DNA of 60,137 nucleotides, counting the filler, from Hausera hauseri (lineage: Eukaryota), in assembly GCA_046269625.1 (NCBI GenBank). It is 12 parts of 12 records of this genome, joined end to end, with 100 filler letters (N's around TTAATTAATTAA, not from the genome) between each part and the next. Parts side by side here need not be neighbours in the genome. Positions count along the whole stretch, not along the records: positions 13,075 to 17,379 come from JBJURY010645997.1; 11 more parts are not named here. One strand, 5' to 3'. Every line of letters begins with the position of its first letter. Positions within the stretch are counted from its first letter, which is position 1. A model generated the notes under the pieces. It saw only the letters and a list, made by a program, of their open reading frames with translations, ran no database searches and was not told where the DNA came from. The translations under genes were made by a program, and so were the position numbers. Below are positions 1,500 to 60,009 of this stretch, piece after piece.

Positions 1500-3590
1500 A
1501 ATATTGGCAACGACTTTGTTACCAAGATCGGACATATGCATTTCATAAGATTCTTTTTTCCAGTTGAATAGTAACGAATTCAAATCTGAAATGTCTGATA
1601 TAGGGAATGATTTTATTCAGTACGATTTGTTCGTTGGCAGATTCCTGCAAATACACACAGAGCGAGAAACCGTTAACTTCACTGGTATGCTGCCAAATGC
1701 ATGGATCCCTGATTTCGATAACCTGATCAATCGTGAGGATCTCTTTAAAAATCAACACAATCCTCTCCGTGACATAGTTTTGGTGGTTGAAGAATAAGAA
1801 CGGAAAGTTTGTGAGGGAAGTGGAATTACTAAACGCAATATCAGCAGAGATGAAAAGCGAAAAAAGCGGGTCGGCAATATACCAACCGTACCATTCCATC
1901 AAGAAGCTGCTGAAGATAATACCAATAGAACTCAATGTGCCTGCTAACACATGCAGATAAACACTCCTCATGTTTTTTTCATCATGATGCGAATGACTAC
2001 GATCATGACCGTAACTGTGACCACGGCCATGATCATGTCCGTGGGAATGGCCTTGGTTTTCTTCAGAACCGTGAGAAGGACCATGGCTATGCCCCAGGGC
2101 CATTATTCCAAACAAGTTCACCAGTAAACCCACGACAGATACCAACTTAAGCCGTTCGATACTAACTTCCGGTGGTTAAATTAGACGATTAACATCATTA
2201 CGGAAAACGGATATTGATATTACAATAAGGAAAAGAGCGTTTATAAAACCTGACAATGCTTCGACTCGATGATACCCAAAAGAATAAATTTTCGACGTTT
2301 TCCACCGGCTGACAATAGCCGCGTAGAGGCCCATCACAATTGCAGAATCGAATAACATGTGAAAACCATCGGAAATCAGTGCTAAACTATTTGTCAGAAA
2401 TCCATAGAACAATTCCACAAACGCAAATGCCAAATTAATACAAAGATACAAAAATATCCGTCTCGAATCGTCATCGAACAATATTTCCATCAACGTCTTA
2501 TGGAGATGACTGACAATCGATGGTCCGGTACAATGGAGAAATTCTTCGCCAACAGAAAATGTATAAAGCGGCAAACCGCCTTTGGAATAACCAACGAAAT
2601 TTCCTTTGTTCGTCTTGGTACGATTGTAACTCGATGCCAATAATTTACAAGCTACATGGAAAATAATCCAAACGAAACAACAACAAAAACCCCTCACCAT
2701 AGGCAATCAAAAACAAACTAACGACAACTCCAAACGACAATTCATGATCGGTATTATCACTATCCAAAATGACAATTTTATGAAGCAAAGTCCTGCTCGT
2801 TGTATACGGATGATTCCAGAAAACTGACAAAAACATGCCGGTAAATCCCATTATCCAATTGCCATAAATGCCAATAAACTGACTACCGTATTTCGTCGCC
2901 GTTATTGAATTCACGTAAAAGTCAACGACGTTATTGCTGATACTGATGTAGAAAATAATGGCTAGAATGTGCCAACTTGATTGAGAAATAGATTCCGGAA
3001 CGTTGAAAAAGTTGTCGTATTGATTGGTGAAATAAAAGGCTAGAACGACGAACAACCACGTAATTGACGAAATGATAGACGAGATTGCCGACAGTCGTTT
3101 ATGGCCACCAACAACGTGACTGATGTTTTTACCAACAATTTCTTTACAACCCGTATCTAGTAACAGTCCCAAAACCAGTAAAATAACACCAGCTTTATGG
3201 TCCGATAATCCAAAAGCGGAAAGAATTTTGTTGAGTACCCGTGGAATCAGAACATTGTTATTCAATCCGGCATTAGGAACATTTTCCCCTGGAGATTTCT
3301 CACCATGATCATGATCGAAAAACAAAATGCGGGTTACAGCACAGATAAAAATAAAAGTTCCACGAGATTTTACCATACTACTATCGTTTAAGAAGAAGAG
3401 ACAACTTAAAATAGACAGGACAATCGTTTCATTGTGTTCGAATATCAAAATAAATCTTAATGGTCCACACAATCCCAATCCAATTAATATTAGCACTTAA
3501 ATAAACCAAACTAACAGTGAATATTTAATAACCTTTATCCACTTGTTCGCTTTTAATTTTTGTCCTGACATAAAAGCCTTTTGGAGAACA
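1500..3590 (-). pseudogene. SLC30A5: Zinc transporter ZnT5 (CDF family), intronless, 5'-truncated, with stops and frameshifts
   Basis: Motifs in ZnT5 order across ORFs 3497-3967 (tail only), 2645-3496, 2176-2706 and 1543-2145: LQKAFMSG...WIKV, GLCGPLRFILIFEH, DHKAGVILL, GYSKGGLPLY, DSRRIFLYLCINLAFAFVELFYG, LISDGFHMLFD, a His-rich loop, VYLHVLAGTL and TIQLEK. Confidence 0.9.
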
Positions 3591-4707: not shown

Positions 4708-6045
4708 TTATAATATTCCGTGAGTTTTGTAATGGGGATAAAAAATATCTTTGGAAACATAATCTATAACCAATTTCCAACGATAACTCAAAATTAAATA
4801 TTTGGAGGATGTTGAAATATCACAGATTTTGTGAGATTTTATAGATCTGTAAACACGATCACTCGTACGTTGGAGGTTAAACAAGGTTCTGGGCTCTAAA
4901 CATCTGACAGTAATTTCAATTTTCCTCGAAAGAACCCAATTGATAAAAACAGTCAAAGCACAAGTGCATTGAATACTAGTATCATCTGACACTAAAAATT
5001 CTTTCAATGATGCACTGGTAGAGTCATCATTAAAATCAGAGAGATAATTTCCTCGAAGATCAACTCTTTTACGAACACCGTGAGTATTAATTGAATGTAG
5101 AACGTCCGTAGATGCAGATATTTTAATAAGTTTATTAAATGAAAGATCAAGATCAGTTAAATGTCGCATACGACTAAGCAAGCAGACGGGTGCATCCGGT
5201 TCTGAACTACTATGACGTGGCTGAAGTCCTATTGGATTGTCTGGAAAAAAATTTTCCGTTTCTGTAGTTGCCAATGTTATGAAATTTTGATAACGATTGT
5301 GAGAAAGATTTAAATATCGCATATTAACCAAATTTAACAAATGAGAAGAACCAGATTGATTTAGTTTATTGTGTGCCAAATTCAAATGAAGTAATGAAGC
5401 AAGTTTTTTCGGCACCTCTACGAAATTGTTTCGCGATAAATCCAGGTCAACGACTGCTTTCATTTTGTCGAATGAAGATTTACAAATTGCACTGATAGAA
5501 CAACCGGATATTTTCAGAATAGATAAACACTGCAAACCAAAAGTCCAATAGTTTTTAATGCTTGTCAAATTAAAATTTTCAAAAATATCCAAAAACTTAA
5601 GACCGGGGAAAGATTGTATATAAAATGGTGCAGTGCCGAAATGACAAATTTCTGAACTACGCTTGTGAACGTTAGTCGCGAATAAATTTCCGCGTAAACT
5701 CAGCCATTTTAATTTTACTAAATACTGCAACGGTAAAGATGGCATCTTTTTAATTTGATTGTATGATAGATCGAAAAATTCTAATTTTTCAAACTGAGGT
5801 ATCAGTCCAAAATCAGATGCGTCGTTTACATCAGCTTTCCTTTTTCGCCGAGAAAAATTAATCGGTCTCTGTTCAACATTATTGTTCACAGTATAAGATA
5901 ATTTGAAGCCGGTGTTTTTATTTGATGATACTCGGTTATCCGACGGGTTTCGAAAAATTTTAAATTTATTAAACCGTAAAGAAAGCCCTTTTAGACTTTT
6001 ATAAACAACGGTTGGAGTTATTTGTTGTGTAGCCGACAGACACAT
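4708..6045 (-). CDS. Leucine-rich-repeat protein, Toll-like-receptor ectodomain type (LRRs plus LRRCT); possibly a pseudogene fragment
   Basis: Multiple LxxLDLSxN repeats, an LRRCT cap (IQCTCALTVFINWV...RCLEP...C) and a juxtamembrane-like YRWK. No intact TM helix or TIR domain is visible. Confidence 0.75.
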   Translation of the reverse strand: MCLSATQQITPTVVYKSLKGLSLRFNKFKIFRNPSDNRVSSNKNTGFKLSYTVNNNVEQRPINFSRRKRKADVNDASDFGLIPQFEKLEFFDLSYNQIKKMPSLPLQYLVKLKWLSLRGNLFATNVHKRSSEICHFGTAPFYIQSFPGLKFLDIFENFNLTSIKNYWTFGLQCLSILKISGCSISAICKSSFDKMKAVVDLDLSRNNFVEVPKKLASLLHLNLAHNKLNQSGSSHLLNLVNMRYLNLSHNRYQNFITLATTETENFFPDNPIGLQPRHSSSEPDAPVCLLSRMRHLTDLDLSFNKLIKISASTDVLHSINTHGVRKRVDLRGNYLSDFNDDSTSASLKEFLVSDDTSIQCTCALTVFINWVLSRKIEITVRCLEPRTLFNLQRTSDRVYRSIKSHKICDISTSSKYLILSYRWKLVIDYVSKDIFYPHYKTHGIL

Positions 6046-6071
6046 TTTCCAAAATATTTTGTGTAGCCGAA

Positions 6072-6569
6072 TTACAAAAAACGTAAATGTAACATGTTGA
6101 TTATTTCGTCGTGTCCCAATTTTAATTTAATAAGTAAACTGTGACATGAAAAACAGGCGCAGGGCATCCCACAAACAAAAGCCGGACTCACGGTATTGTT
6201 CCAAGTTCCAGTTGTGCAGATTTCCGTAAAAATCACCGGTGATAATTCATATTCTAGAGTCCGACAAATCAAATCATTTTCAACGGAATTTGTGCTGCAC
6301 ATTATCTGACACAAATTGTAGTAATTGACTTGAAATTGTATACCAGATATCGTTCCTCTAGAGTAATTAGCAAAGACAGAAAATATCAAATTTATCACCG
6401 CCTTTTGTTGGTGCGTGAAAATAGCATATGTTACATTCCGATGCACCAACAACGTCCCGATATCATTTTGTAGAGTTAATTTTGTGGAATTTGTTACAAC
6501 AGGTAACGTATAATTCTTTCTTTTCCTTTCCGAGATAATTACAAAAATAAAATTCATTTTCAACACCAA
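6072..6569 (-). CDS. Uncharacterised Cys-containing protein ('domain X'); may be the N-terminus of the LRR gene
   Basis: 165-aa ORF with a paralog at 3600-3990. It is separated from the LRR ORF by a short duplicated TGTGTAGCCGA motif (about 6027 and 6060). Confidence 0.5.
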   Translation of the reverse strand: MVLKMNFIFVIISERKRKNYTLPVVTNSTKLTLQNDIGTLLVHRNVTYAIFTHQQKAVINLIFSVFANYSRGTISGIQFQVNYYNLCQIMCSTNSVENDLICRTLEYELSPVIFTEICTTGTWNNTVSPAFVCGMPCACFSCHSLLIKLKLGHDEIINMLHLRFL

Positions 6570-6782
6570 AAATTTATTTTCAAACGTTCAAAAAACTTTT
6601 TCAAATTTTATAAGTAGTAATCATGAATTTAAAACAATTTTTTATTACAAAATCACAAAATATGCCATCTAGCTCTCGCTCATGAAACCCCCCGCGGCCG
6701 TTAAATGTCACAGTTTCCATAATCAGCATAATTACTATTAATTTTCATCCGATGCTAAAAATCCAACGTAACGAAATGAACA

Positions 6783-7219
6783 ATGTCCAAATGTCAACAT
6801 TATTCTCCACTAATGGAACGTGATAGAATTCTTGAAAATTTTCAGGCTATTAGTGAAAATCAGAATTTTGAAGAGTGTAATCAAATTTTAGAATCAGTCA
6901 ATTGGGATTTAAGTAAAGCGGTTGAAAATTTAGACCAACTAAGTGAATTTTCTGTTCCTGCAATGAAATCAAGTACTCTATTGAGTCAATCATCAAATCG
7001 ACCAAGAGATTTAGTTTTCAGTGTCGATATTAAAGGCCAAAATGTGGAAATTATTGTTTCAGAAGACCAAACCGTTAGTGATGTTGCCAAAGTAGCAGCA
7101 TTATATATCAACGATCCAGAATGTTTACTCAAAATAAATTGTCCAAAAACTCCATACGATGACAATACAATTTTAAAAATCATGAAGTTACCAAGTCATA
7201 ATAACGTTGTTGCTACTCC
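6783..7219 (+). pseudogene. FAF1: FAS-associated factor 1 N-terminal part (UBA plus first ubiquitin-like domain), truncated by an LTR
   Basis: MERDRILENFQAI...EECNQILESVNWDLSKAV matches the FAF1 UBA domain, and RDLVFSVDIKGQNVEIIVSEDQTVSDV matches UBL1. The last codons of the ORF derive from the LTR that starts at 7220. Confidence 0.8.
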
Positions 7220-7390
7220 TGTTGAATGCACGAAATAAAACTAAAATAAGTAGTAGAACTACAATACGCTCCGGTGGCAAGGTGTGACGTAAAGATAAAA
7301 GAAATAGTAAACTAACGTAGAACGAAACAGTGTGGGCTAACTATGTGGTCTTCGTATGTTCAAGTCGTTGTATTCCATCAGTATTTAACA
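7220..7390 (-). repeat. LTR (171 bp) of the adjacent Gypsy element
   Basis: TG...CA ends with inverted termini TGTTGAAT / ATTTAACA. It lies 3' of the minus-strand integrase. Confidence 0.7.
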
Positions 7391-13074: not shown

Positions 13075-13975
13075 GCGAACAGTTTCACCCGATGTTTTGT
13101 ACGTGTCAGAATCCAGTTCGATAGAAGCCAGTAGTTGTTTACGTTCTCCACTAACGAGTACGGATTTGTCTAAGTCAATTAAAATGTTAATTTTATGAAA
13201 TACTCCATAGAGTCGTGATTTGTATTTGGCAACAATAGATTGTCCAACAATGGTCTGATAGAATTCGCGTTTTGAAAAACCCAGATTCCGAGCCAACAAT
13301 TCATCAAAGGCAAAATATGTAACATTGTCATGCAGTATAACGAAATATAACCATCTGCGTTTATTTCACATTTCTTTACAGCTAATGTAGCCGTTTTCTT
13401 GACGTATTCACACAATTTCAGTTCCGTTTCCATTAATAAATCGTGTTGTATAATATATGATCGGAAGACTGATTCTGACTTAGTCCATTTTACTATAATG
13501 CCGGATTCCGGATCGGATGGAAGGCCCAATTTTTCACCAATTATATCATGTCCACCTAGCCGTAGACCTTTCGAGTGTACATTGACTGATTGAAAATCCC
13601 ATGCCTGAGCGTCAGCTATAGAATTAAACTGCATTTTAATGGGATTTCGATGCATTGGTTTCATACAGTAGTTTAAAAATAAGCATAAAGCGAGAAATGT
13701 CGCAAATATTTGCAAAGAGTATATCGGTTATTGCATCGGATTGTCCGCAAACGACTTAAAATAGGGTACGTTTCTTGTCGGGTAAAGTAAATACCACTGT
13801 TCTGACGTATTGTCATTTGTGAAAATGTGAATGCGAATTCCGTCAAAGCCACTTCCCAGGCTACGAAACGTAAATCAACCGGTTAGTCCAAGTGCATGAT
13901 AAACTGTTTAGCGTTATTGTCATTGTAGTCATGTTGTGATAATGATCTGTTACTATCAAGTACCAAGTAAATGCT
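13075..13975 (-). pseudogene. Maverick minor capsid (penton-like) protein 1, frameshifted
   Basis: Near-identical in protein to 45057-46101 (METELKLCEYVKKTA..., INILIDLDKSVLVSGERKQLLASI). Confidence 0.75.
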
Positions 13976-14640
13976 GCTCATTGAATCTGTGATGCAAAAA
14001 TCCAACTCGGTGCAATATATCCGTGCCACTTGACGAGATGTTGTTTATTCGAACCTTTGTCACGTGAACGTAGAATTTCCTGAATACGATATACATCGAG
14101 TTTCTCGGGCAGTACCTGCAGTTCCTGTTTGTAGAATTTACTGCGTATTTACTCATTGTTTTCATCCTCTAAAACGTACATGACAGGTGTATGTTTTGTG
14201 TTGATTGTCGAAATGCGGAAAAACTCATTGCTGCAGTTCTGATTGAAATTCTTAATGAATTGCGTCGTACTTATTTTAGAAATACGTACATAAGCATCGA
14301 TTATATATTTTGGTTGCCTGTTGCCGTTGTGTTCGGTTTTGATAAAGCCACATGTTCAAATCATTGATTACCTCAACCGGGCACATTCCGTTGATTCCAC
14401 TGTGTGTAGAATGATTGTATGCATGAATAATATCCGGTTGTACATCTACCCAGCGTTTTTTTCCTTGCTTCGTAAAGAAATCGGTTCGTTCAGGCTGTAT
14501 GCTAACTGTTTCTCTAGCCAACGTTGGGTTTGTTGCCAAGTCTGTTTGATAGTCTTTGCCAGTTTGTCAACGCCAGTATACCCGATGGGATGAAGTGTAT
14601 CAAACCATACTTCATCCGTCACTGTCGTCGATAATGACGC
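13975..14640 (-). pseudogene. Maverick rve integrase/chromodomain with the catalytic core deleted
   Basis: WFDTLHPIGYTGVDKL...WLEKQLAYSLNEP is joined directly to FFTKQGKKRWVD..DIIHAYNHSTHSGI. The 3' chromodomain-like part matches 44700-45060. Confidence 0.8.
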
Positions 14641-14762
14641 TTTTGTTTGCATTGCAGCATTTAAGACAAAATGTTAATAAAAGATTCGGTAAACTAGGCA
14701 AAATGATGAAAACCATGCACCCATATAGCAAAATCATCATATACTTACCGTCACTGATTATA

Positions 14763-15060
14763 CTAAACTGTTCCACCAATGAGTTCACCCAGTAATGACG
14801 CGACAACCAGTAGAATTGTACCAAGGAATCCGCCATATTGCTGGTACATGACCTCTGGATTAAGTCGTTTACTACGAGCGTTGGCAAGACCAATGCGTCG
14901 TTTTCGATACTTTAGTAAATTCCGCTTTCCAATACTAATGTCAACGTGACCCACAACAATATTGTACAAAATTTCCATCAAATCTTAGGAATGATCGCAG
15001 CATGTTTCGCTTATGTCTCGTAGGTGCCTTGAACAAAGCAATAAAGTACGGCTGACTACG
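14763..15060 (-). CDS. Conserved small Polinton protein with a C-terminal GGFL motif (putative virion core/cement protein)
   Basis: EILYNIVVGHVDIS...LLKYRKRRIGLA...QQYGGFLGTILLVVASLLGELIG, a pattern typical of the ORF downstream of the Maverick ATPase. Confidence 0.55.
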
Positions 15061-15305
15061 TTTGAATCGCATTTTTAAACTATTGATGTTGAGATGTAGT
15101 TTTTTATAACCGTTGCCGCTGTGAGGCTAATTTGCATCCAGTTGATGCTGTTGTTCAAATCACAGAACAAATTAATGGCTTGACTGTAGAGCTTCGTTTT
15201 TATACACGTTTCATGCCGGGATCCTGCTTGGTAGGTTTACATTTAACAATGGTTTTTCGGAAATTCTTTATTTTGTCACATTCATGTAAATTTTCAAATT
15301 TGTTT

Positions 15306-15870
15306 TTAGATACAGACTTTCTGATTGAAAATATCAGTTCGTCCGCGCATGTCATGATATTCCTCTATCAAGTAGGCTTGGTTGTGAGGAAATACTTGTC
15401 GTGCAACATAATCAATGATGGTCTGATTACAGGGATTTTTGAACAACACCAAATAGTGTACATTTAGATTTCTTGTTCGATGCTGTCCGACCTGAAGGAA
15501 TACGTTTTGCGTAATGAAAATAATCGACATACCACCGTATCGTGCAATTTTCGTGAACAGGTTGTTGAAATCTGATTGTTTCGAGGCTTCCTGAAATAAA
15601 TCGTCAATGATAATAACGTCACCGTTGCATAATCTCAGACCAGTTCTCATCAAACCCATCAAATACCGTTATTAATTTTAATTTACAAAATTCCGGATGT
15701 GTCAAACCGGACTTACCATCATCACCAATATCCTGATGCCAGTAAATGTGATTGTACCGCGGTGAATGGAACATGTCACGGTAGTTCTGCAAAAGTTTAC
15801 ACACAAAGTGTGTTTTGCTACTTCCACTGGGGCCTACAGTGTGGAAAATTGTACCATTTTGCAGCTTCAT
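15306..15870 (-). pseudogene. A32/FtsK-like DNA packaging ATPase, frameshifted
   Basis: Walker A (VGPSGSSKT), Walker B (VIIIDDL), FTKIARYGGMSIIFITQN and RNLNVHYLVLFKNP. Confidence 0.9.
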
Positions 15871-15941
15871 CTAATAATAGTAATAATAATAATAATACAA
15901 CCTTTTCTCACAATATAATTTGTTTATAATCGTGTTACACG

Positions 15942-15952
15942 CTTATAAATAG
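15942..15952 (+). promoter_or_regulatory. Candidate TATA box in the 96-bp divergent intergenic region between the ATPase and TBP-like genes
   Basis: CTTATAAATAG about 20 nt upstream of the ATG at 15967. Confidence 0.35.
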
Positions 15953-15966
15953 CTAAAGTTTCCATA

Positions 15967-16428
15967 ATGTTAGTTAATATTAACTATCGCGGATATGCTA
16001 CCAAGTGTGACATTAACACACTAGCTTTTAATCAATGGAAGCCGAGGCAGTATATCCTCAAGTGTCCACTGGATTTTACACGCATCATATTTTAATTAGG
16101 AAAGTGTCGTATTATGTGTTGTCGCAAACCAATTACAGCTGACAGTAACAGTAAACTACTACCATTCGGAATTGTCATTGACAAAATCCAATCAATAACG
16201 GTAACGACTCAGTTAGACTACCAATCAATCAATCTGTACAAATTAGCTATGGCCACTGAATGTACCTATAAACCCAAACTGTTTCATGCATTGAGACTGA
16301 CATTGTTTCACCCACTTTGTGTCAATGTGTTTAGCAGTGGAAAAATTGTTGCACTCGGTATTCGGACGGTGGACTATGAACCGATTATTAATCAAATTAA
16401 AAACCGCATAAATGTTTTAGTAAATTAA
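15967..16428 (+). pseudogene. TATA-binding-protein-like protein (two-repeat TBP fold, about 153 aa) with one in-frame stop at 16093
   Basis: Repeat 1: MLVNINYRG...RIIF*LGKCRIM. Repeat 2: IQSITVTTQLDYQSINLYKLA...YKPKLFHALRLTLFHPLCVNVFSSGKIVALG. Compare TBP IQNMV...I.LE.L...YEPELFPGL.Y....P....LIF.SGKVVLTG. Confidence 0.75.
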
Positions 16429-16602
16429 AATAATATACTCTGCATAACAAAATATATATACCATTCCTATGGTCATTCAGATATTACTGCCATGAAAGAC
16501 GACTATAAAACAATTCTACTCAATGGTGACAGTGATGAAAGTTCAGATTGGTCGTGATTGTTTGGCTACAAGAAGGTCAATTCTAATGTCAAATTGATAT
16601 AA

Positions 16603-17148
16603 ATGAGAACAGAACTTATCCAACAATTAGAAAAACTGAGTGATTGTGTGCAGGACGATTATGATGACGATTGTCTGGAAACGAAAAAGGAACTTGCTCA
16701 AAAGTCATTAGCTGCAAAAGCGACGTTAAAAAGGCAAAATGCAATGATTGAAATACGTAAACGAAAATTAAAACCGTCGAGCCAAACACAGACATTTTTA
16801 CCGAATCGAATTTTTCGCGAGTATGAAATGCATTTTCTGCAAACGCCCGTACTGATTTCATTGAAAGACCCGACGTCTCTATGTGCATCCAAGTACAGCT
16901 ATCGTGTAAAACGGCTTTCGGGTAAAAATTTAAATAAACTTTCTGATGCTCTGCATCAATTAAACGTGGATTTAAAGTTAAGCGAAACGACCGTGCAACA
17001 GAAAACTGTCGTTTTACAAACTCAGAAAACGAAATTGTTCGATTTTACCTGTCGCAAAATGTTTAATGTACCCATTGATGATTTAAAGTGTCGACTGAAT
17101 ATTGACTTACAAAGATACAAAGAAAAAGCCGATTTGGAGTGTAGCTGA
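16603..17148 (+). CDS. Hypothetical 181-aa protein (likely Maverick accessory gene)
   Basis: Intact intronless ORF with an NLS-like RKRKLK, lying between the TBP-like gene and dUTPase. AATAAA follows the stop. Confidence 0.55.
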   Translation: MRTELIQQLEKLSDCVQDDYDDDCLETKKELAQKSLAAKATLKRQNAMIEIRKRKLKPSSQTQTFLPNRIFREYEMHFLQTPVLISLKDPTSLCASKYSYRVKRLSGKNLNKLSDALHQLNVDLKLSETTVQQKTVVLQTQKTKLFDFTCRKMFNVPIDDLKCRLNIDLQRYKEKADLECS

Positions 17149-17283
17149 AGTACATTTTAGTTATCAATAAATATTGTTGTTGTTGCCGTTGTTTTGTTTT
17201 ACCGTTTTTCTTTCATTAACCCAATTAACGAGAATAAATATACGTGTAATTTTAATATTGGTATAGGAATAAAAATAATAATA

Positions 17284-17379
17284 ATGAATGATGTAAAGAT
17301 TATCTTAGCAGACAAAAATGCCTTTGCACGGAGACCTGTTACAGCAAACAGTGCAGGCTACGATGTGTTTTCCAATGTC
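17284..17379 (+). CDS. dut: dUTPase N-terminus (truncated by the contig end)
   Basis: MNDVKIILADKNAFARRPVTANSAGYDVFS matches dUTPase motif 1 (P.R.T..SAGYDL). Confidence 0.75.
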
Positions 17380-44158: not shown

Positions 44159-45060
44159 AAACCGATAAGAAGGCGGTTTCCAACTCGTGCATACCGTGCT
44201 GCAGGCGTAAATAATGTATGGCAAATGGATCTGATAGAAATGATTCCGTACGCCAGCATCAACGATGGGTATCGGTACGTGCTGACATGTATTGATGTGT
44301 CTAATCGTTTGTCACATGCAATTGACGTGAAATCTAAATCCGGTAAAGAGATTACCGACGCTGTTCAGACACTGATACAACAGCAACAGTCGAAGCATTT
44401 ACAAACGGACTTGAGTAAGGAATTCTACAACGCCCACATTGCAGCGGTCTTGAAACGGTTCGGCGTAAACCACTACTCGATGTTTTCCCAATACAAGCCG
44501 GCACTAGTTGAACGATTTAATCGATTACTGCGCGGTCACCTAAACAAATTCTTTATGAAGCAATACAACAAACGCTGGGTAGATGTACTGCCGGATATTA
44601 TTCATGCATACAATCATTCGACACATCGTGGTATCAGTGGATTACGGCCGGTTGACATAATCGATGATTTGGAAATGTGGCGTTATTAAAACCAAACCCG
44701 ACGAGGATGACAGGCAATTAAACGTCGCCCAAAATATAAAATCGGTGATTATGTACGTATTTCAAAGCTGAGTACGACACCACTCATTAAGAATTTCAAT
44801 CAGAACTGGAGCGATGAAGTTTTCCGAATTTCAGCAATCAACACAATGCAAAGTCCGGTTATGTACGTTTTAGAAGATGAAAATGGTGACGAAATACGTG
44901 GAAAATTTTACGAATAAGAACTGCAAGTACAACCGGAAAAACCCGATGTGTATCGTATTCAGGAAATTCTAAGTTCACATGGCAAAGGTTCGAATAAACA
45001 ACATCTGGTCCAATGGTACTGATACACTACACCGAGTTGGATTTTTTCATCGCCGATTGA
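44159..45060 (+). pseudogene. Maverick rve integrase with a C-terminal chromodomain-like region
   Basis: KPIRRRFPTR...WQMDLIEM...YVLTCIDV...LQTDLSKEFYN...LVERFNR...YNHSTH, then KIGDYVRISK...QNWSDEVF...GKFYE. Premature stops are present. Confidence 0.92.
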
Positions 45061-46101
45061 GTGATAGCATTTATTTGGTACTTGATAGTAACAGATTATT
45101 ATCACAACACGACAACAATGACAATATCGCTAAACAGTTTACCATGCACTTGGACCAACCGATCGATTTACGCCACAGAGCCTGGGACATTTTCACCAAT
45201 GACAATACGTCAGAACAGTGGTATTTACTTTACCCGACAAGAAACTAACCATATTTCAAGTCGCTTGTGGACAATACTACACAATAACCGATATATTTTT
45301 CGCAATTATTCGCGAGAAAAATTTTCGGTATATGCTTATTTTTCAAACTACCGTATGAAACTAATGCATTGATATCCCATGGAAATGCAGTTTAAATCTA
45401 TAGCTGATACTGAGGCATAGGGTTTTCAATCAGTCAATGTACACTCAAAACGTCTACGGTTAGGTGGACGTGTTATAATTAGTGAAAAATTGGACCTTTC
45501 ATCCGATGCGGAATCAGATATTATAGTAAATCAGACTAAGTCAGAATGAGTCTTCCACTCATGTATTATACCGCACGATTTACTAGTGGAAACGGAACTG
45601 GAATTGTTTAAATATGTCAAGAAAACGGCCGCATTAGTCGCAAAGACATGTGAAATAAATGCAGATGGTCATATTTCGATTACACTACATGACAATGTTA
45701 CATATTTTGCCTTTGATGAATTATTGGCTCGGAATCTGGGTTTTTCACAACGTGAATTCTATCAAAACATTGTTGGACGATCTATTGTTGCCAAATACAA
45801 ACCACAACTCTATGGAGCATTTCACCGAATCAACATTTTAACGGACTTAACCGAATCCGTACTCGTTGGTGGAGAACGTAAACAACTGCTGGCTTCTATC
45901 GAACTGGATTCTGACACGTACAAAACATCGGGTGAAACTGTTCGCGTTATTATGTTCAGACGCATGTACTTATCATTGTCTCATAATACTGTGTACAGTA
46001 TTTCCGTGTATATGCTTGATGAATTTTGGGAACGAATTAAATTTCTGTTTGGGTCAACGACACATTTGACGTTACATTTTCGACGTCGTCAACATCGATA
46101 A
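45057..46101 (+). pseudogene. Maverick minor capsid (penton-like) protein 1
   Basis: N-terminal IYLVLDSN...DN...FTMHLDQPIDL...WD and C-terminal INILTDLTESVLVGGERKQLLASI...ISVYMLDE..ERIKF..G.T.HLTLHFRR. Confidence 0.8.
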
Positions 46102-46146
46102 TAAACAAACAGCGTCATCATCACCATTATCATCATCGTCGAGATC

Positions 46147-47222
46147 ATGAGTATTTACATGGTGTTGCCAAGCAACAGATGTCCGACGACTGATCCGAAC
46201 AACTCCGCCAGTGAATACGTTATAGACTGGAACAATCCTTTGGATTTATCTGGACAATGGGAGGTTGCACTGACGAAATTTAACTTTCCCTACGCACCGG
46301 TGACATTGAAATGTAGTATGAAAATAACTTACAACAAGACTGTTACTGAAACCAAACACATTCTTGTCCTATGACACTTACTAATAATAAAATAACAGTT
46401 GGAGAATCGGCCATTTGCACGACTGAAGCAAATTACGGTTCACGCGGCAAAATCGGTGTTTTTATTTTAGATCAAAACTTACATTTTATTGCAGATTTTG
46501 AATTTACTGTTACCTTTAAGTCCTCTGAGATGGTGCAGAAATTTGGATTCAAAAATACAGAGTACAAAGGTAACCATATTAAAAGTGAATATGTAGTTTG
46601 TCCAAGATTAAATCCCGTATATTACCAGGCTATGGTGAAATTTACATATACAACAGAAAGGGTATCAGCGTCATACGTATCGATTGGAGCCAATGTCCAT
46701 TGAGAATCTGTAGCACATCTCTGTGAACACTTTTCTTCAAATGAAAAGTAGAAGGAGATATTTAAAGTTTTTGAGTCAGATGCAAATGGGTACATTAAAT
46801 TTGAACTGGCTAAGGATATTGTCGACATTTCATTGGACTAAGCATTGGCCATGGTATTGGGTTTTGAAAAACAGCGGTTTGAGGCATCGACAACGGCGGC
46901 ACATGTTGCAACATTTAAAGCCAAACTGAAAACTGGTCTAAGTCAAATGTACATTTGCGTGAACGTCACCGAACCTATTTTGGTAGGTGGAGTAAGTGCA
47001 CCGCTACTCCATGTAATTTATCCGGAAAGCAGCAAGTATACTTCTGGCCACAATGTCACTGTCAAGCTCGATAATCCAATGTACCTAACTGTGGCATCTA
47101 CATCTATAAACAATGATGAAGTGAATATCCGATATAACGCAGGCTTCCTTATTAAATTGATGTACGGTACCACAACCAGTCTAACTTTTCATTTCCGTCA
47201 AATCCAACAACAACATCATTGA
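46147..47222 (+). pseudogene. Maverick minor capsid (penton-like) protein 2
   Basis: MSIYMVLPSN...PNNSASEY...PLDLSGQWEVAL and MYICVNVTEPILVGGVSAPLLHVI...NPMYLTV...TTSLTFHFRQ. Confidence 0.85.
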
Positions 47223-47588
47223 TTCCGAAATTATTTCCATATACAGTAAACCCCAGCAGGGCGGTGAACTGCCGTATTTTGTTGGTAAACAGTATGGCTC
47301 TGGATAGTTGCGTACATTGGCACGTTTAGCATTTCAGGTGTTGAAGTGTATTGGAGCCGTGGCAGCCAAAACAGCACAGGACGTACTGTATGAAAACAAA
47401 TTGATTTTACCATCATTAATGGAACAGGCCTTGTAAGAAATAAAAAGCGCTACACCGGAGGTCATTGAATCAGTCAAAAACAATTTGCTGGCAGTGGCTT
47501 GAGAAAACTCCGTAGAGAATCATCGAGCTCATCAACTATAAACAAACGTCGTCGTCGTACGATTTTCGATTGATTGCTTGACAGACAA

Positions 47589-48120
47589 ATGGCATCTGCA
47601 TAATCTGAATTGTGTATATTTGACAAAGGTGCACCAGAAATTGTTATTAACAATGCGGCATTTGAAAAAATCTATCCCGTTAATTCGGTTTCAACGGATG
47701 ATAACATTGACATTCAATTTAACATGATGGCATCGGACAATGAATACCTGGATTTGAACGATACGCTACTCTATGTAAAAGTCATTGTTAAAAATGATGC
47801 ATCAACGGTTCTCACGGCAACAGACACTGTCACACCGGCCAATTACTTTTTCCTCACACTGTTCAAGGAGGCTTCACTGACTCTGAACAGTGTCAAAATC
47901 GAAGGCAACATCAGTCTGTACAGTATCAAGGCACTCATTTAAACGGCTCTGAATTACAGACAAGAAAACTACTCATTTGACGAAAACCATCGGATATGAC
48001 GCCACAGCGACAAACCGTCAGGCATGGGTGGCAGAATCAAAAACCCTTACCATGTGTGGACCACTGTACTTTGACTTTTTCGATCAGCCGAAATACCTAC
48101 TGCCCGGTGTTAAAGCCATG
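47589..48120 (+). pseudogene. Maverick major capsid protein (double jelly-roll, PY/hexon) N-terminus
   Basis: *SELCIFD...IYPVNSV...IQF...EYLDLNDTLLYVK...PANYFFLTLF...GPLYFDFFDQPKYLLPGV. Confidence 0.88.
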
Positions 48121-50089
48121 NNNNNNNNNNNNNNNNNNNNNNNNNNNNNNNNNNNNNNNNNNNNTTAATTAATTAANNNNNNNNNNNNNNNNNNNNNNNN
48201 NNNNNNNNNNNNNNNNNNNNCTAATATGAAAATTGAGGCCACATATGTCAATGTTGATGGTGAAGAGTCCAAAAGGGCCTTTAAGACCGGAAATAGGCCC
48301 ATTTTTGAAGCTACAGATATACTACAATGGCTGCATGATGAGCATGCAAAGTTGATTACTGAAGCTGATGAGAACCAGAGTAAGAAGAGCGGATGGGCTC
48401 TGGCAACTATCAAGAACCTACGTGTGCATGTTCACAGGTACTCTCCCATGCGAGGCAGTTCATATATACAGCTGCCAGAATGGATTAGGCAGAAAAACGC
48501 TTGCATTAATGTCCATAATAATGACACCAAGTGTTTCATGTATGCCATTCTATCAAAACTCGTGTCGGATCAAAAACATGCTTCACGAATTTGGCTATAT
48601 AATGATCTGAAACACAATTATGACTTCCAATGCATCACATTCCCTCCATCCTTAGATGAAATAAAGAAGTTCGGACAACTCAACAACATGTCAATCAACA
48701 TCTTGGGATTGGATGAGAAGGATAAATTCTATCCCCTGCAAATATATGATAATGAATTGGAAGATCATAGGGATCTGCTCCTACTAGACGATGGAGAAAA
48801 GAAACATTATATTCAGATCAAGAATTTTGAGCGTCTAGACAGATACCAAATTACGAATCATCATGAACAAATAGAAATATGTAAACGATGCTTTTCCAAT
48901 TTCAGTGGTGATACAGCAGTGGACAAGCTTGCATAGAACAAAATTTACTAACAACAATTACTGTGTAAGACCAGAATTTTCCAAGGAGGACTATATTGAA
49001 TTCAAAAAGTTCGAGAAGAAGATCAGGGTCCTAATAGTTATCTATTGCGACTTTGAAGCTATTCTCCGGCCAATTCACGGCTGCGCTCCCAGCTCTCAAC
49101 ATAACATCACAAAGTCATACCAATGTCACGAACTCTCATCGTATTGCATGTATACCAAAGGACTAGACAGTGAACCATTTGTATTTAGTGGTCCAGGCGC
49201 AGCAGAACATTTCTTGATACGACTTGAAAATATGGCTCATGAGCTTGAAAACATGCTTCAGCAGCATAAGGATACAATGAGAATGTCGTGGAAATAAGCT
49301 GAAGAATGGCACAAGGCAACAACTTGTTACTTTTGCTCCAAATCATTCACCAAGGAAAATCATAAAGTTAAGGATCATTGCAATTTTACAGGCACATATC
49401 GGGGCTCAGCATGCAACAATTGCAACTTACGCTGCGAGACATGCACATATGTGCCTGTAGTGTTTCATAATATCAGTGGCTATAATTCCCACTTCATTGT
49501 TCGAGAACTGGGCAACATTGAAGGAAACATCGATGTCATTCCTGATAGTGAGGAAAAGTACATCACTTTCACCAAGCATGTGGACTACATCAGGCTTCGC
49601 TTCATAGATAGCTTCCGCTTTATGAGCTCGTCATATCGAGTACGCGAAAGGTTTCCTGGAAATTGTTCATAAATTCCTCGTTTACATTTAAGAGAGTTTT
49701 TGAGAGGAATGTCTTAACCAAATTTGTAATATTCTCAACGTGAAACACGACGATTTTTGTATTAGAGTAAATATTGGGACGCATGTTCTGTATCGCTGTA
49801 AGAAATGGATGCTTAAAATCAGGTTTCAGACGACAGACTTTCCAAATAAAACATGGAGATACACTTTGTTTCAAAAAATCTTCTTTTGAAATGTTAATTA
49901 AAACTTCGCCAACTTCCGCGATAAAATGGTATCCAATAAAGAGATAGACAACAATTCAAAACTTCGATCAACCTGTTCATCCAGTGAATTGACATTAAAG
50001 TGACCAAAAGCAAACTTGTCTATATTTTGGATTCCAACATGAAGATCATAATTTAAAATTCAAAATTCAAAAAGCAAATGTAATTGTGT

Positions 50090-50580
50090 TTATTTTTTTA
50101 TACATTTAAACAACAGTTTTTGAATCGTGATACGAATAAACGAAGTCGGAGTACTGATTAGAGTCACGATTGTTACTAAAACAACCCAATACCAATGAAA
50201 CATGTATATTTGTTCATTGAGCATATTAACCGGTAGAACACATTGTGCCGTAATTCCGTTTCTAACACCCGAATGATCCAGTCTGGCATAACGGTAACCG
50301 ACTCGAGGGAAGATCATGGTTGTTTGCCAATCTTGCCCATTAAGAGTGTTTTGAGCAACTTCAATACCAAAAAAATCGAGTTAGTCCCAAAGAAGTTTTT
50401 GCATTAATATCGCTTGGTCGAATGAGTTAATGAGATAGTTGATTTTTAACACGAAATAGCTAAATATCAACCAATTCCCGAGACGTTTACTGACCACAAG
50501 AAAGTTACAAGTTTTATATAATCCTATGCAATAGTTAGCCATTCTTCCTATTCGATTGTCCCATTTTTGCCTCGCTTTTT
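50090..50580 (-). pseudogene. inx: Innexin internal fragment (intronless)
   Basis: SKRLGNWLIFSYFVLKINYLINS...GQDWQTTMIFPRVGY...AQCVLPVNMLNEQIYMFHWYW. Confidence 0.9.
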
Positions 50581-50599
50581 CACTTGAATGTATAACCTG

Positions 50600-51455
50600 A
50601 TTGGCACTGGTAACTAAATGCTAAATATCGGTTCCGGTTAAATTGTAACAAAACATTTGCCACAGAACACGTGAAATTTAGAACATTATGCATTGGAGAC
50701 TGAATACGAAAGGAACCCATTGATAATACAATAAAGAAACCTGGTGGACCATTACGTTTCTGTGAACGAGTATGCATCGTTCGATCTGGCACATTTGGAT
50801 TTGATGAAAGTGTGGCATACTAGTATTTGGTCGACGATTTGGTAACGTTGTCTCTGACTGACTAGAATTTTGTCGGCCGCTTCTTATTGTGTCCCGTTGA
50901 TTTGAATTTGGGCGATAAGCGAGTCTATCCAATAAACTAGAATTTTGACGATTTCTGGTTATTCTTACAGGCAAATCTACATCGTCCCTTCTGTGATTTG
51001 ACAGTTTATCAAAGGATTATTCACTTAAAATGGCGACAATGCAAACATACCTTCCAAATTTTCGATATCTTCACATCAAACTGTTTTTATGCACTTTCCA
51101 TCTATTTTATCAAATATTTTGTAATTCTTGACCTTAGACCGATCCATAGGACATGAATTCTTTTCGTTCGTCCATAATTCGATGCAAATGACACAAAATT
51201 CCTGTGTACAACAAGCCAATCTGGCTACTTTACCATCAATATTAGAAAGACAAATACAACATTCTTTAGGCTTGCCGGCAACCATGTGTAAGACACGAAT
51301 ATTTGCAGGTCGTCCAATAAAATGACTTGGTTTATGAATTGTTCCACGGAAATTTTAGAGGCGGAACATCGGGAGATTTTTGAATACCTTGAATGATAAG
51401 GCGTTTACTAAGTTTCACCTCTTCTGATAGAATTATTAAATAGTGCAGCATACAT
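50600..51455 (-). pseudogene. RING-finger protein fragment (PHRF1/SCAF11-like RING plus R/S/N-rich region)
   Basis: CCICLSNIDGKVARLACCTQEFCVICIELWTNEKNSCPMDR. The zinc-ligand His position is substituted and downstream stops are present. Confidence 0.7.
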
Positions 51456-51575
51456 CCTCTTAGAGCAACAAAGTATTGAGTATTACACCCAAATTTTTTA
51501 TGTTGAATTGAACTATATTATCACGTTTGCAGTGCACTGTTGAATTTAGTGAGATATATCACATGTACAAAACTT

Positions 51576-51685
51576 TATCGAGGCAGAAGATCGGGACCCG
51601 CCTATAGGCTCGACGCAGCGGCAACGGAGGTCCGGCCGTGTCCAAGCAAATGTGCCATAGGGCGCCGGCCGCCGCGGGCATCACA
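51576..51685. mobile_element. Short GC-rich element, possibly a solo LTR/TRIM terminus (TA...CA)
   Basis: 110 bp of sharply higher GC ending in CATCACA and followed by CCTCA, which mirrors CGTCA at 49629-49633. Confidence 0.4.
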
Positions 51686-54294
51686 CCTCACTGGATAGTT
51701 TAGTGAAGAACCTCCCCGCATAAGAACTCAAGGAATGAGAAGCGGTTCTTCCCCACTGCATTTGACCTAGTCAAAAGGACAGGCGTGTTTACTTGTGACT
51801 ACATAACCTCATGGGAAACACTGGATAAGACCTCATTGCCGGACAAGAAGGACTTTTACAGTATCCTCTCTGATTGCAATATCAATGATTCTGACTACCA
51901 GCATGCCCAGAATGTCTGGAATGCATTCCAATGCCGAACAATAGGGGAATACAGTGACATATATTCCAAGACGGACGTGCTGCAGCTGACAGATATCTTT
52001 GAGAGTTTCAGGATGTCACAATGAAGAGCCATGCATTGGATCCGGCTCATTTCGTTACGGTTCCAGGGATGAATTGGGCAGCAATGCTGCGCTATACTGG
52101 TATTAAGCTGCAGATCACTAAGGATTACGACATGATCCTTATGATCGAGTGAGGCATTCGATGTGGAATATGCCAGGCCATTCATGGGTATAGCGAGGCC
52201 AACAACAAGCATATGGCCCAGGATGATCCATCCAAGGAATCGTCATAATTATCATAAATGGATGCCATCAACTTGTATGGATATGCAATGAGCGACCCAT
52301 TGCTGTATGATAACTTCGAATGGATCGAGAATCCTGAAAACATCCCTATATTGGACCTGGATCCCACTGGAGATATGGGCTACATACTGGAGGTGGATAT
52401 GGAATATCTTGCTTTCATCCATGCAAGGCATCAACAGCTGCCTTTCCGCCCTGAAAGCAGGCATCCGACACATGAAAAACATAAGACGCTGCTCTGCCAT
52501 CTGGGTAATAGGGAGAGATATGTAGTTCACTACATCAACCTTCAGCAGGCAGGTAGACATAGACTTCGTATTACCAAGATCTATAGAGCCCTCCAGTTCA
52601 GCCAGTCCATGTGGCTGCAGCCCTACATAGATTTCAATACCAAGCTGTGGACAAATACCAAGAACGACTTTGAGAAAGACCAGTTCATGCTTTACAACTC
52701 GGTCTTTGGCAAGACCATGTAGAATATCATGAACAGGATCAACATCGAACTTGTGTGTGACTGGAAGCGAGAAAAAAACTTATTTCCAAGCCTAACTTCC
52801 ACAGCAGCATCATATATGCTGAGCATTTGGTCAGCATCCATATGCTGAAAACAGCATTGATATTCAACAAGACCATATGGCAATCCTCGACCTGTCAAAG
52901 ACCCTAATATATCATTTCCACTACGGCATCATGGTCCCCAAATTCAAGTCCATTCAGTTGATGAATATAGATACTTGTAGTTTCATCTATCATATCCGTA
53001 CAGAGAACATTTATGAGGACTTTTCCCAGTTGGTAGAGCATATGGATACTACGGACTATCCGAAGGATCATCCCAACTATTCAATTGCCAACAAAAACGT
53101 CCTTGGGAAATTCAAAGACGATGTGAATGGGGCAACAATATCGAGATTTTTGGCTCTCAGATATAAAATGTATGCTCTACACGTATGTGGCCAAATAAAG
53201 AAGCAGGCAAAAGGGGTTCAAAGGGCTCTATTGGTCAAGAAGATCAGTTTTCAAGACTATGACAGTACTGCAGGAGCAGACTCACATTATATCGGAAATG
53301 AAAAGGATCCAATATAGGGATCATAACATACAAACTGTTACCTTACAGAAGGAAAGCCTAGATGGGATGGATGACAAGAGGCAGATCCTCAGCGATGGAA
53401 TTCAGACACTATCGCACGGGCATGTGACATTATTGTAACTATGTACATATTGTTATTCTTTGTTTAATAAATGTTGTATAGAAATATGGTGTTGTCTTCT
53501 TGATCAAGTAATGTGGGATAAGGCCAAGTAAAACTAAGTAACTACTATATAAGATAAGACCAACTAATTTCATAACACATTTACTTAGTAACAATATAAC
53601 TTTGACATAATGCTAAACACTTTTTATATGCACGATGTGAACCATGTTCACAATAAATACATGTAACGTTCTTTGGTATAGCTACCAATTTGTTACATTC
53701 ATATGCACATATTTGCAATTCTGAAAATATGCTATTAAATATCTTCTTCTTTCGCCCATCAGCATGGTATTTGACACAGAACATTGATTCATTTATATCA
53801 CACATTCCAAATATCTCGCATAAGGCAATCTCTGCAAAACTGGGTATTATATTCTTCCAAAGTAAGTTTGTGATGATGATTTGTCAAATAAGCATTTGTT
53901 GCTTAAGCCTTGTTTGTGAAACAATGTAGTGTAGACCTAAAAATAGCATAAGTCACATGTACTATAGTAAAATTCACTTACCCAAATACATAGTGTAGTG
54001 AATGAAACATTATTCACTAGCATTATACGTAGGCCTTTATGATATATTCATTATTATTATCCACAAANNNNNNNNNNNNNNNNNNNNNNNNNNNNNNNNN
54101 NNNNNNNNNNNTTAATTAATTAANNNNNNNNNNNNNNNNNNNNNNNNNNNNNNNNNNNNNNNNNNNNATCCTAAAAGGCACTTAGTTAGTTTTACTTGGC
54201 CTTATCCTAGCTCCCACACTACTTGATCAAGAAGACAACACAATATTTCTACACATTTATTAAACAAAAGAATAACAAAGAATAACAATAATAT

Positions 54295-57200: not shown

Positions 57201-58275
57201 GCGATCCAATCAGGGAGTTGAATATATGAACTACCCCGCATGGGGGAGAATCTGTGCACATACACACTCAATCTCTTGATAGTTGCCAGAGTTCATCCGC
57301 TCTTCTTACTCTGGCTCTCATCGGCTTCACGGATCAGCTTTGCATGCTCTTCATGTAGCCATTCTACTATATTGGTGGCTTCAAAAATGGGTCTATTTCT
57401 GGCCTTGAAGGCACTTTTGGACTCTTTACAATCAACATTGGCATGTGGCCTCAAGTTTCATATTTGTCTTAATGGCCTTGTGCTCAGCTATGTTGCCCTA
57501 AAGAATCCGCTTTGTTTCTTCCTCTGTGTACTCTAGGAACTCCTTGATGGTTGTTTGACCAGCTGCATCAATGACATATTTGCGGCATTTTTTCTTTAAT
57601 GCTGCAGCATCAACTGGCTGCTGTCTTTGACTGTTTGATGGAGCCGGTACGCCTGATGCGTCCGATGCGCGTTTTAGTCCTGCATCTATGTGTACTGCAG
57701 GCTGTGGTACTACAGGCCGTGGTACTGCAGGTTGTGCAATTGGCTTATGTTCATTAAAGATGATCTTCTTTGACTTTTATGTGAAGTCAGTCAAATGATG
57801 TTTGTGATCATCATAAAATTGTATGTAATCGCCATCACATAGAGATTCACATCCTGTGCGGATATAATAAATTATCCTGTTGAATTTGTGTCCATAATAG
57901 CTCCTCATGGTATTGTGGCAATTCTGAGGGATGTGTGTTACACATATGCAATACATATGTAAACTGCATTTTTAATTTTCGTTTGGCACAAACGTCGTTA
58001 TTGGCATATTGTTACTGAATATTTGTTTTTTCGACTTGGTGAAGTAAATCAAGTGCTGTCTATGGACATTATAAAAATCTTTATAATTGATTTGTCACAC
58101 TGCCTCACATGTAGGGCATATATAATACTGAACCCTGTTATACATATAGCTAAAGTACTTCTTCATAACACTGTGGCAATTTTCCAGCTCGTGGATTTGA
58201 GCCAAACATTCGCTGTAAAGTTTTCACATCTAAAATCAACCAATTATTTGAGGAGAACAATCAAAAAACTCACCA
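54295..58275 (-). pseudogene. polB: Protein-primed DNA polymerase B (Maverick), copy 2, uninterrupted but decayed
   Basis: Collinear with copy 1: YCDFEA, VKDHCHFAGAYRAAA, VVFHNLSGYDFHFI, FRFMSSSLDSLVKN, KPIYVGMAILDLSKTLMY, YMDTDSFIY and GKFKDE. The 5' limit is approximate. Confidence 0.93.
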
Positions 58276-58864
58276 TTCGTTGAATTGATTTTGGAAATAA
58301 TGAAAAATATAGTCATATCACCATGTACTGCCTAGCTTATTGATTGGTTTTAATGTTCTTTGTTTTAATGCATCAATTAAATTAAATAGAAGGCGGCGCC
58401 AAATTCAAATAAGTTTTCGACCATGGAGAATCGAATGACGTCATTAGATTCTTCGAATAACGCATGTTTGACCGAGTTTTCGAGTACGAATTGCTAAGTA
58501 TTCAACTTGTGAGCTTGAAGTCGAATATCTAACATCATATTCCGATTCGGCATACATGACTTCCTATCCCGCCCCGCTATTAGATTTATCGATTTCCGCC
58601 TCACTGGGCTTTAAATGCACATTCTGCTTAATTCGAAATATAGATTTTATGCCTATATAGTACATTTTGAGGGAATAATTTTTATATGTAAGGAGGTTTT
58701 CACATATGAGGAATCGATTACCGCTGTTAGATTTTTGGAATAATTCGATATTCGATATTCGAACCGAAAAATATTCGAATTTCGAATATCTGACTCGAGA
58801 TTCGAGATCGCCATAGTCGACTTCCTATCTGTCCCCGCTAATTATAATATAGAATGTTGACTCC

Positions 58865-59340
58865 TTAGGTCTAAAAACCTATCGGAAATCTGCCTTAGTT
58901 GCACTTTGGATCGATATTATTCGAAATCGACTAGATAAATTTAAATTCTAACTGCACATTCATATAATGCACCATGTTTGTGTTCGAATGCACCCGGTTA
59001 CATAGCCTAATCATCAATATTGGAAATATCGGAAAACCGATATTACTGATTTTTGCACAGATGCACATGTGCTGTTCACCTGCACAGTACACGAATCGAT
59101 GTGCACTGATGTGCACTATCGATTAGCACTTTGTCCGATCTATTCGATTAATTGTGCAATGTGCAGCGATCGGTTTGTGACATGTGAAAAAATGTGCATA
59201 GCAACAGTGCCTAACGGTACCGTCGCCTAGCACACAACCGATCGAGAGTGCACGATATGCACTATCGATTGCCACATGTGCTAATTGATTTATCGATTCT
59301 CACACCCCCGGGGGTGAGGCAGACTTTCCATTTTCCTACT
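58865..59340. repeat. Terminal inverted repeat of the Maverick (ends ...TTTTCCTACT)
   Basis: Homologous to both arms of 41860-43109. The 5'-AGTAGG terminus reads on the minus strand, upstream of pPolB. Confidence 0.75.
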
Positions 59341-59345
59341 ATTAA

Positions 59346-60009
<664 letters not shown>

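Follow-up and report, generated by a model that had tools for sequence, protein, structure and literature searches.

The window (the whole stretch of DNA that was analysed, 60,137 nucleotides of Hausera hauseri, filler included) strings together fragments that are unrelated to one another, with N-linkers between them. The part relevant here is the fragment at 13075-17379, which carries the remains of a Maverick and whose features are collected in Table 1. The gene that concerns us most encodes a miniature TATA-binding protein (TBP) relative, which we call mini-TBP. The sequence-only reading had described an intronless ORF of about 153 codons with two TBP-like repeats and one TAA, lying head-to-head with the packaging ATPase at a distance of 96 bp. 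Both descriptions hold, the first by ORF reading, Pfam, AF2 and VIA-align, the second by an ATPase start codon at 15870 on the minus strand. The TAA is codon 43, the sole internal stop, and is absent from most related copies (two sequencing runs). Several otherwise near-invariant residues have also gone from this copy of the protein, including both acids of the TFIIB stirrup. Since the genes for the ATPase, the integrase and a small basic protein ending in a GGFL motif are all frameshifted, the copy is decayed throughout.

Table 1. Features of the Maverick fragment at 13075-17379, in window coordinates
Feature	Position	Strand	Basis or remark
Putative minor capsid (penton) gene, broken, cut by fragment end	13075..13981	-	Order after integrase; N-terminal motif
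Retroviral-type integrase with chromodomain, broken, internally shortened	13984..14631	-	tblastn, three frames
Small basic protein, GGFL motif at end, frameshifted	14775..15099	-	tblastn E 1e-19 to cluster C3
Packaging ATPase, frameshifted	15309..15870	-	tblastn E 2e-58, two frames
(T/C)ATAAAC(A/G) box TATAAACA, putative mini-TBP site	15921..15928	-	58 nt before ATPase ATG
Canonical TATA box TATAAATA, putative promoter read by host TBP	15944..15951	+	23 nt before mini-TBP ATG
Mini-TBP gene, decayed copy	15967..16428	+	153 codons plus stop, intronless
Likely SSB gene (the earlier "unknown ORF")	16603..17148	+	HMM of family C2, E 6e-19
Possible dUTPase start, 32 codons, cut by fragment end at 17379	17284..17379	+	SAGYD motif only

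Relatives of the ATPase match Pox_A32 (Pfam, E 3.8e-6), and those of the integrase match rve (E 4.5e-15) and Chromo. The GGFL protein is a putative core protein. The penton label is weak, with no tblastn match at E ≤ 1e-3 for that gene in this fragment. Downstream of the mini-TBP gene the earlier reading had placed an unknown ORF and then a dUTPase. The ORF stands and has acquired a family (C2), a member of which adjoins the TBP gene in 23 of the 80 loci related to this one. The dUTPase is no more than a possible one: the stub has a SAGYD sequence, presumably dUTPase motif 1, and no Pfam or PDB match. The predicted structure of a C2 relative (pLDDT 93.7) finds its best fold matches in DUF2815 (Z 7.6) and the Enc34 single-stranded DNA-binding protein (SSB; Z 7.4), followed by T7 gp2.5 (Z 7.2) and ASFV CP312R (Z 6.7), all below 8. 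On that model the ORF likely encodes an SSB with a T7 gp2.5-like OB fold. Nearly every well-covered type of related locus has a small possible SSB gene near its TBP gene (clusters C2, C13, C18 and C26). C13 matches the giant-virus DUF5871/DUF2738 clusters, C18 and C26 are possible SSBs by motif only, and C2 and C13 match each other weakly (hhalign probability 19.7).

Two short elements share the 96-bp gap between the divergent genes. TATAAACA is turned towards the ATPase, TATAAATA towards the TBP gene, and in this fragment a perfect copy of the former box is kept before the ATPase only. Elsewhere in the window lie three further Maverick fragments (44159-48120, 48221-54067 and 54168-60137), which between them hold an integrase, putative penton and MCP genes, broken PolB genes and a DEDD-like gene. 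In the fragment at 44159-48120, TATAAACA occurs twice (near 47105 and near 47537), upstream of the pVII-like gene and the putative MCP gene. Other fragments carry host-like genes at 1546-3496, 4711-6126 and 6780-7235: a cation-efflux gene (apparently intronless, and interrupted), an LRR protein and a UBA-domain protein.

The predicted fold and the family

Searched with an X in place of the stop at codon 43, the window protein matches the Pfam TBP family (PF00352) with an E value of 4.5e-10 and 39.7 bits against a cut-off of 22.9, over residues 73-136 only, which is the second repeat; intact relatives score 47.8-63.7 bits. A sequence search of the PDB returns TBPs only. The AF2 model, built on a 35-row alignment, has a pLDDT of 93.3, and every Foldseek match to it at E ≤ 0.001 is a TBP. 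VIA-align lays residues 1-153 on TBP with Z of 10.9-13.4 across 38 entries and an rmsd of 2.6-3.1 Å over 143-149 residues; the next fold reaches Z 6.7. The predicted structure is thus a whole two-lobed TBP saddle (148 of 153 residues), as had been expected of the stop-corrected protein. Sequence alone reveals only the second lobe, and it is the span of the structural match that shows both to be present.

How widespread is such a protein? Among the 41 candidates of a word-based search, 35 are intact proteins; they are 109-198 aa long, and identity reaches 72-73% in the nearest. With a profile, 3,270 clusters were found at E ≤ 0.001, and the best 150 of them were analysed. Among these, 122 full-length representatives of 50%-identity clusters (125-310 aa) include 110 with the mini-TBP signature, of median length 165 aa, and 12 of cellular type. 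In a tree the mini-TBP family (33 rows) forms one side of a branch with SH-aLRT 99, set apart, as the check proposed earlier had sought to learn, from other Maverick TBPs and from the cellular side, which consists of 12 unlabelled cellular-type rows. Across 41 locus pairs of 65-99% identity with usable dS, dN/dS has a median of 0.15 and a maximum of 0.45, and is below 1 in all 41. By this measure the family is under purifying selection.

The idea that this is a multi-copy Maverick gene is borne out by 80 metagenome loci with a mini-TBP (kept of 83). Their neighbours include the ATPase in 29 loci, the GGFL protein (cluster C3) in 21, a DEDD-like protein in 17, integrase in 16, putative penton in 13, putative MCP in 11, protease in 8 and PolB in 7. 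Pfam supports the ATPase, integrase, protease and PolB in these loci. The capsid, core, pVII and DEDD labels are ones we presume from gene order and motifs; conserved ORFs of 410 and 350 aa sit in the expected capsid order, with no Pfam match. One contig (L085) carries pPolB, an rve integrase, an A32-type ATPase and an adenain-type protease together with a mini-TBP. The gene had been expected to lie between terminal repeats. It lies between core genes in three loci (L058, L068, L085), and a search of five long loci (those three, L009 and L023), which are possibly partial, turned up no terminal repeats. A single public run has 28,484 contigs on the fragment at 13075-17379, covering all 30 bins, and one run has 7,521 contigs on a 1.1-kb region. 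Searches of IMG/VR with the TBP, ATPase and MCP alignments found no relative, and a motif scan of it gave three loci, none with any Maverick gene; a phage collection gave no match.

Two observations stand beside these. Of 36 motif matches in GTDB bacterial genome bins, 12 are Maverick contigs (L085, L087, L089, L092, L094, L097, L102, L103, L104, L106, L109 and L112), most likely eukaryotic contamination. Mini-TBP elements (L058, L061, L063, L068 and relatives) also carry accessory genes: phospholipase A2-like, KilA-N, LRR, RING, dual-specificity phosphatase and E2 ubiquitin-conjugating domain.

The residues of the saddle

Compared with cellular TBP (PF00352, including TRF2/TBPL1 and yeast TBPm3), mini-TBP keeps the two-lobed saddle over its whole length (Z about 13) and differs in being only about 20-25% identical, with a shortened first lobe and a changed DNA face. 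Residue numbers here are those of yeast TBP, by alignment. We had been pointed to the DNA-intercalating phenylalanines, and three of the four are kept in the 110 representatives: F116 in 104, F190 in 109 and F207 in 108. At F99 there is no Phe; by a register set by hand, as was that for A101 to Gln, the residue is Pro in 76 of 76 closer rows, and in MAFFT it is a gap. N69 is kept in 87 of 110, 17 rows lacking that end.

The rest of the DNA face has been rebuilt. Among the same 110, V122 has become Arg in 104, T124 Met in 108, N159 Ser or Thr in 109, V161 Thr or Ser in 108, L205 Asn in 108, I194 Arg in 78 and V71 Asn in 67, and V203 is Cys or Ser in the 76 closer rows. At least eight DNA-face positions are thus fixed to residues other than those of cellular TBP, whose DNA face is hydrophobic. 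The DNA contacts listed for TBP include V71, F99, A101, V122, T124, N159, V161 and L205 (PMC12529657, in part). The altered-specificity positions of TBPm3 are I194, V203 and L205 (PMC1636458, in part), and all three are changed in the family.

The acids of the stirrup, E186 and E188, which bind TFIIB (PMC10005294 and PMC7221094, both in part), are kept: E186 in 100 of the 110, with Asp in another 6, and E188 in 108. No TFIIB was found in 290 kb of mini-TBP loci with a profile of seven Maverick TFIIB-like proteins (best E 0.65). The N-lobe is cut down in near relatives, with 36 residues from N69 to F116 against 47 in cellular TBP and a median of 21 from G125 to N159 (34 relatives) against 34; a deeper group is less shortened, at 44 and 30. 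Helix H2 of this lobe, which is long and basic in canonical cellular TBP, has 7 residues in the AF2 model of the window protein. The helix region of the N-lobe is the site for TAF1, TFIIA, Brf1 and Mot1 (PMC7221094, in part), and the N-lobe contacts the 3' half of the DNA site (PMC1636458, in part).

The (T/C)ATAAAC(A/G) box and where it occurs

The box in the window is one instance of a recurrent site, in full (T/C)ATAAAC(A/G). Counted in the 80 nt before starts, with expected values from shuffles, ATAAAC precedes 23 of 24 related ATPase ORFs against 1.7 expected, and the sole miss (L073, which is also a row in the ATPase tree) is a mis-started fragment of a frameshifted gene. It lies upstream of the GGFL protein in 16 of 19 cases, putative MCP in 8 of 10, putative penton in 10 of 16, integrase in 8 of 15 and PLA2 in 8 of 9. 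Genes that are not obviously structural have it too (DEDD-like 9/13, LRR 5/5, C18 3/4). ATAAAC is the top-scoring 6-mer before core genes, with 82 occurrences against 6.4 expected. With L073 and one locus of another TBP type (L080) dropped, here and in the distance set below, YATAAAC precedes 79 of 94 distinct core-gene starts in 33 of 35 loci (100 nt, seven core classes). The C at the 3' end is specific, there being 79 sites with YATAAAC and 2, 3 and 9 with A, G and T in its place. In L085, which was found through its ATPase motif, the box lies within 130 nt before 7 of 7 core genes.

The site is oriented and spaced like a promoter element. It lies on the sense strand, with one antisense case among 130 upstream regions of ten box-bearing classes, and its distance from the ATG has a mode of 35-39 nt (37 of 113 boxes), as do the ordinary TATA boxes of other genes. 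A -30 element followed by a short leader would account for this peak; for 13 of the 113 boxes the distance to the annotated ATG is 7-13 nt, which is too little for a -30 element of that start. The box is also kept in two reading frames inside upstream genes. The TBP gene itself is different. ATAAAC is at background before it (4/53 against 2.9 expected), canonical TATA is enriched before the TBP genes of the family (21/53 against 4.7), and so is TCA(T/C)T (35 against 14.4), most often 30-32 nt from the TATA.

Mavericks of other kinds offer a comparison. One lineage, which we call type B (L125 in G001:C86, L126-L138 in G003, and L080), has a different TBP of 180-230 aa beside its core genes, on a separate branch with SH-aLRT 95. 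In G001 and G003 this TBP adjoins a TFIIB-like gene (Pfam Zn_Ribbon_TF / TFIIB); in L080 the TBP's neighbour has no such match. The Maverick lineage with its own TFIIB has Asp or Asn at the first stirrup position. Type-B elements thus resemble those with mini-TBP in encoding a TBP next to core genes, and differ in the adjacent TFIIB-like gene, the altered stirrup and the want of an ATAAAC box before core genes: it occurs in 1 of 38 upstream regions, 13 of the 14 type-B regions being from one bin. The box does occur before the TFIIB gene in 4 of 7 type-B elements. Nine other Maverick contigs, with another TBP or none seen, have it at 0 of 18 starts. As controls of co-occurrence these are small in number, partial and mutually related. 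In the ATPase tree the state of mini-TBP plus box falls in three separated lineages, in a tree where long branches meet. Two of its "no TBP seen" labels need care: the L097 contig carries a type-B TBP, and the label of L109 is doubtful, its bin (labelled as a bacterium) holding 41 TBP matches.

A different motif, ATTTAAG, is enriched upstream of core genes in L125-L138 (8/38 against 0.7 expected), mostly before putative MCP, and is possibly the type-B lineage's own box; it lies partly within the opposite-strand TBP gene. A third type is seen in L092, a contig of 4.6 kb whose TBP is near-canonical (E 9e-30 to yeast TBP). It also has BIR, ATPase, putative MCP and PC4-like genes, and it has ATAAAC on neither strand. 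At least three kinds of TBP thus seem to occur in Mavericks.

A proposed late-promoter factor and its competitors

The reading we favour, and think fairly probable, is that mini-TBP is a viral promoter-recognition factor that gives the element an early-to-late switch, much as ORF24 and its TATT box do in herpesviruses, with "early" and "late" here judged from gene type. Mini-TBP likely binds (T/C)ATAAAC(A/G) before packaging, integrase and putative capsid genes and recruits host TFIIB and Pol II. In the proposed sequence of events, host TBP would read the ordinary TATA box and initiator upstream of the gene for mini-TBP and of other non-structural genes. Mini-TBP, once made, would bind the variant box as a -30 element, through the minor groove and with three Phe wedges. 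Its intact C-terminal stirrup would dock host TFIIB, Pol II would start at the virion genes, and these would switch on. The non-canonical C is in the 3' half of the box, the half that the remodelled N-lobe, where the protein has changed most, would face; a candidate for reading that C is the Arg fixed at yeast V122. The shortened N-lobe helix may help mini-TBP to escape TAF1, TFIIA and Mot1.

Suppose instead that the box is a genuine promoter element read by host TBP/TFIID or by some other viral protein, while mini-TBP acts elsewhere at AT-rich DNA, for example as a general TATA factor for all the element's genes or as a repressor. The link between mini-TBP and box is a correlation only, and 64% of boxes begin TATAAAC. 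Wild-type TBP has moreover been crystallised on a C(-25) TATA variant (PDB 1qn3, by its title), so host TBP may also bind the box. Set against this, C stands at position 1 as well in 35% of boxes, and the box is missing from Mavericks with other TBP types or none seen (1/38 and 0/18). Box-bearing lineages have no other common gene family besides core genes and SSB-like proteins. TBPm3 disfavours C in the 3' half of its site, and a G:C pair is sterically awkward in the minor groove (PMC1636458, in part). We judge this account unlikely, though a serious one.

The sequence-only reading had offered two roles, a promoter factor of the element's own or a TFIID decoy. The matching box argues for the first. 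In the second, mini-TBP would sequester host TFIIB or TFIID partners and so shut down or redirect host transcription. In its favour, the stirrup is almost invariant, and an intercalating Phe is lost, as in TRF2, which does not bind TATA (PMC10005294, in part). The DNA-facing positions, however, vary as little as the stirrup does, with new residues fixed there, and the helix region that binds TAF1, TFIIA, Brf1 and Mot1 is shortened (21 against 34 residues). A decoy would also leave the box unexplained. With the DNA face the most conserved part of the protein and the lobe that binds TAF1, TFIIA and Mot1 cut down, a TFIID decoy is disfavoured, and we hold the decoy idea quite improbable.

Less probable still is that the motif is a terminator or polyadenylation-type signal and that the TBP-like protein bends DNA in replication or packaging. 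ATAAA does resemble AATAAA, and the TBP gene often sits beside the SSB-like gene and the ATPase. Position -1, however, is a pyrimidine (T or C) in 97 of 103 sites, with A at 3 of them, and the box tracks the downstream gene, not the upstream one: it is present in 9 of 10 TBP-to-ATPase intervals, 1 of 8 from TBP to C13, 0 of 10 from DEDD to TBP and 0 of 11 from C2 to TBP. It is also present before 8 of 9 ATPase genes without a near upstream gene, and in the window it precedes the ATPase with no upstream gene on its strand. The conserved stirrup, too, speaks against this reading. Last, the chance insertion of a host TBP retro-pseudogene into a single Maverick copy would suit an intronless, broken gene but has next to no probability, being refuted by intact homologues among Maverick genes in dozens of loci with dN/dS below 1, by a branch apart from cellular TBPs and by the 7,521 contigs of one run on the 1.1-kb region. 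Fold, family and selection together dispose both of a protein without the TBP fold and of a single host retro-pseudogene.

The late-promoter reading has a precedent. Viral TBP mimics acting at variant TATA boxes are known in beta- and gamma-herpesviruses (PMC12529657, in part). Like KSHV ORF24, EBV BcRF1 and HCMV UL87, mini-TBP is a TBP-fold protein with a changed, more polar DNA face that would mark a variant TATA box before late genes, in a virus without its own RNA polymerase, and in ORF24 the contact positions V122, T124, V161 and L205 are also changed (PMC12529657, in part). The differences are as plain. ORF24 has 752 aa and all four Phe, binds Pol II directly in a six-protein complex, and its model is described as incompatible with TFIIB binding (PMC12529657, in part), whereas mini-TBP is a bare core of 145-170 aa with the TFIIB stirrup kept and one Phe fewer. 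The N- and C-terminal domains of the ORF24 type are absent, and the five partner activators were not found among the neighbours scanned. The herpesvirus box is TATT and the Maverick box (T/C)ATAAAC; the herpesvirus proteins are weak fold matches in Foldseek. By analogy, mini-TBP most likely works like a herpesvirus late-promoter TBP without being a member of that system.

Many Nucleocytoviricota that have a TBP also have their own polymerase. Their TBP-like proteins are Foldseek matches to mini-TBP (E down to 4e-7, 10-21% identity). They share with it a diverged N-lobe regulatory surface and differ in usually being accompanied by a viral TFIIB and in a poorly conserved stirrup (about 40%) (PMC7221094, in part). 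Neither the text nor four of the five supplements of that paper mention Polintons or Mavericks.

The sequence-only reading could not say whether such a gene had been reported, and in one respect it had. A TBP-like gene, possibly of the mini-TBP family, is labelled in a MELD virus, a midsize element with an adintovirus-like PolB, in the legend to Fig. 5 of Starrett et al. 2021 (PMC8502044, in part). The datasets there are non-animal, and the legend gives the label only, with no family, residues or promoter described; the supplement that was searched adds nothing further on the gene. In the Maverick/Polinton literature, covered by titles and the starts of abstracts, we did not find the mini-TBP family or its box, which subscription papers, Repbase and supplements may hold, and the main text of four Polinton papers has no TBP, TATA or promoter. 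What is new, in that we have not found it in print, is the family together with its matching box; the label in MELD virus was known.

We lean, though by no great measure, towards the broader statement that a widespread group of Mavericks has an early-to-late switch of its own, worked by a single reprogrammed TBP of 150 aa, a natural altered-specificity TBP that reads (T/C)ATAAAC, engages host TFIIB and Pol II and evades the regulators of host TBP. When and how Mavericks express their virion genes bears on whether they are true viruses. With a dedicated factor and a box to match, a direct test becomes simple: one small protein, one 8-bp site and one reporter. The pair would be a natural orthogonal TBP-promoter system, with a TBP saddle retuned to read a G:C pair, and the box could help in mapping late genes and in judging, over many elements, how intact they are. 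If the switch is real, no viral pre-initiation module would be smaller; it would have converged with that of TATT and ORF24, and would be a sign that the Mavericks with mini-TBP replicate as autonomous nuclear viruses.
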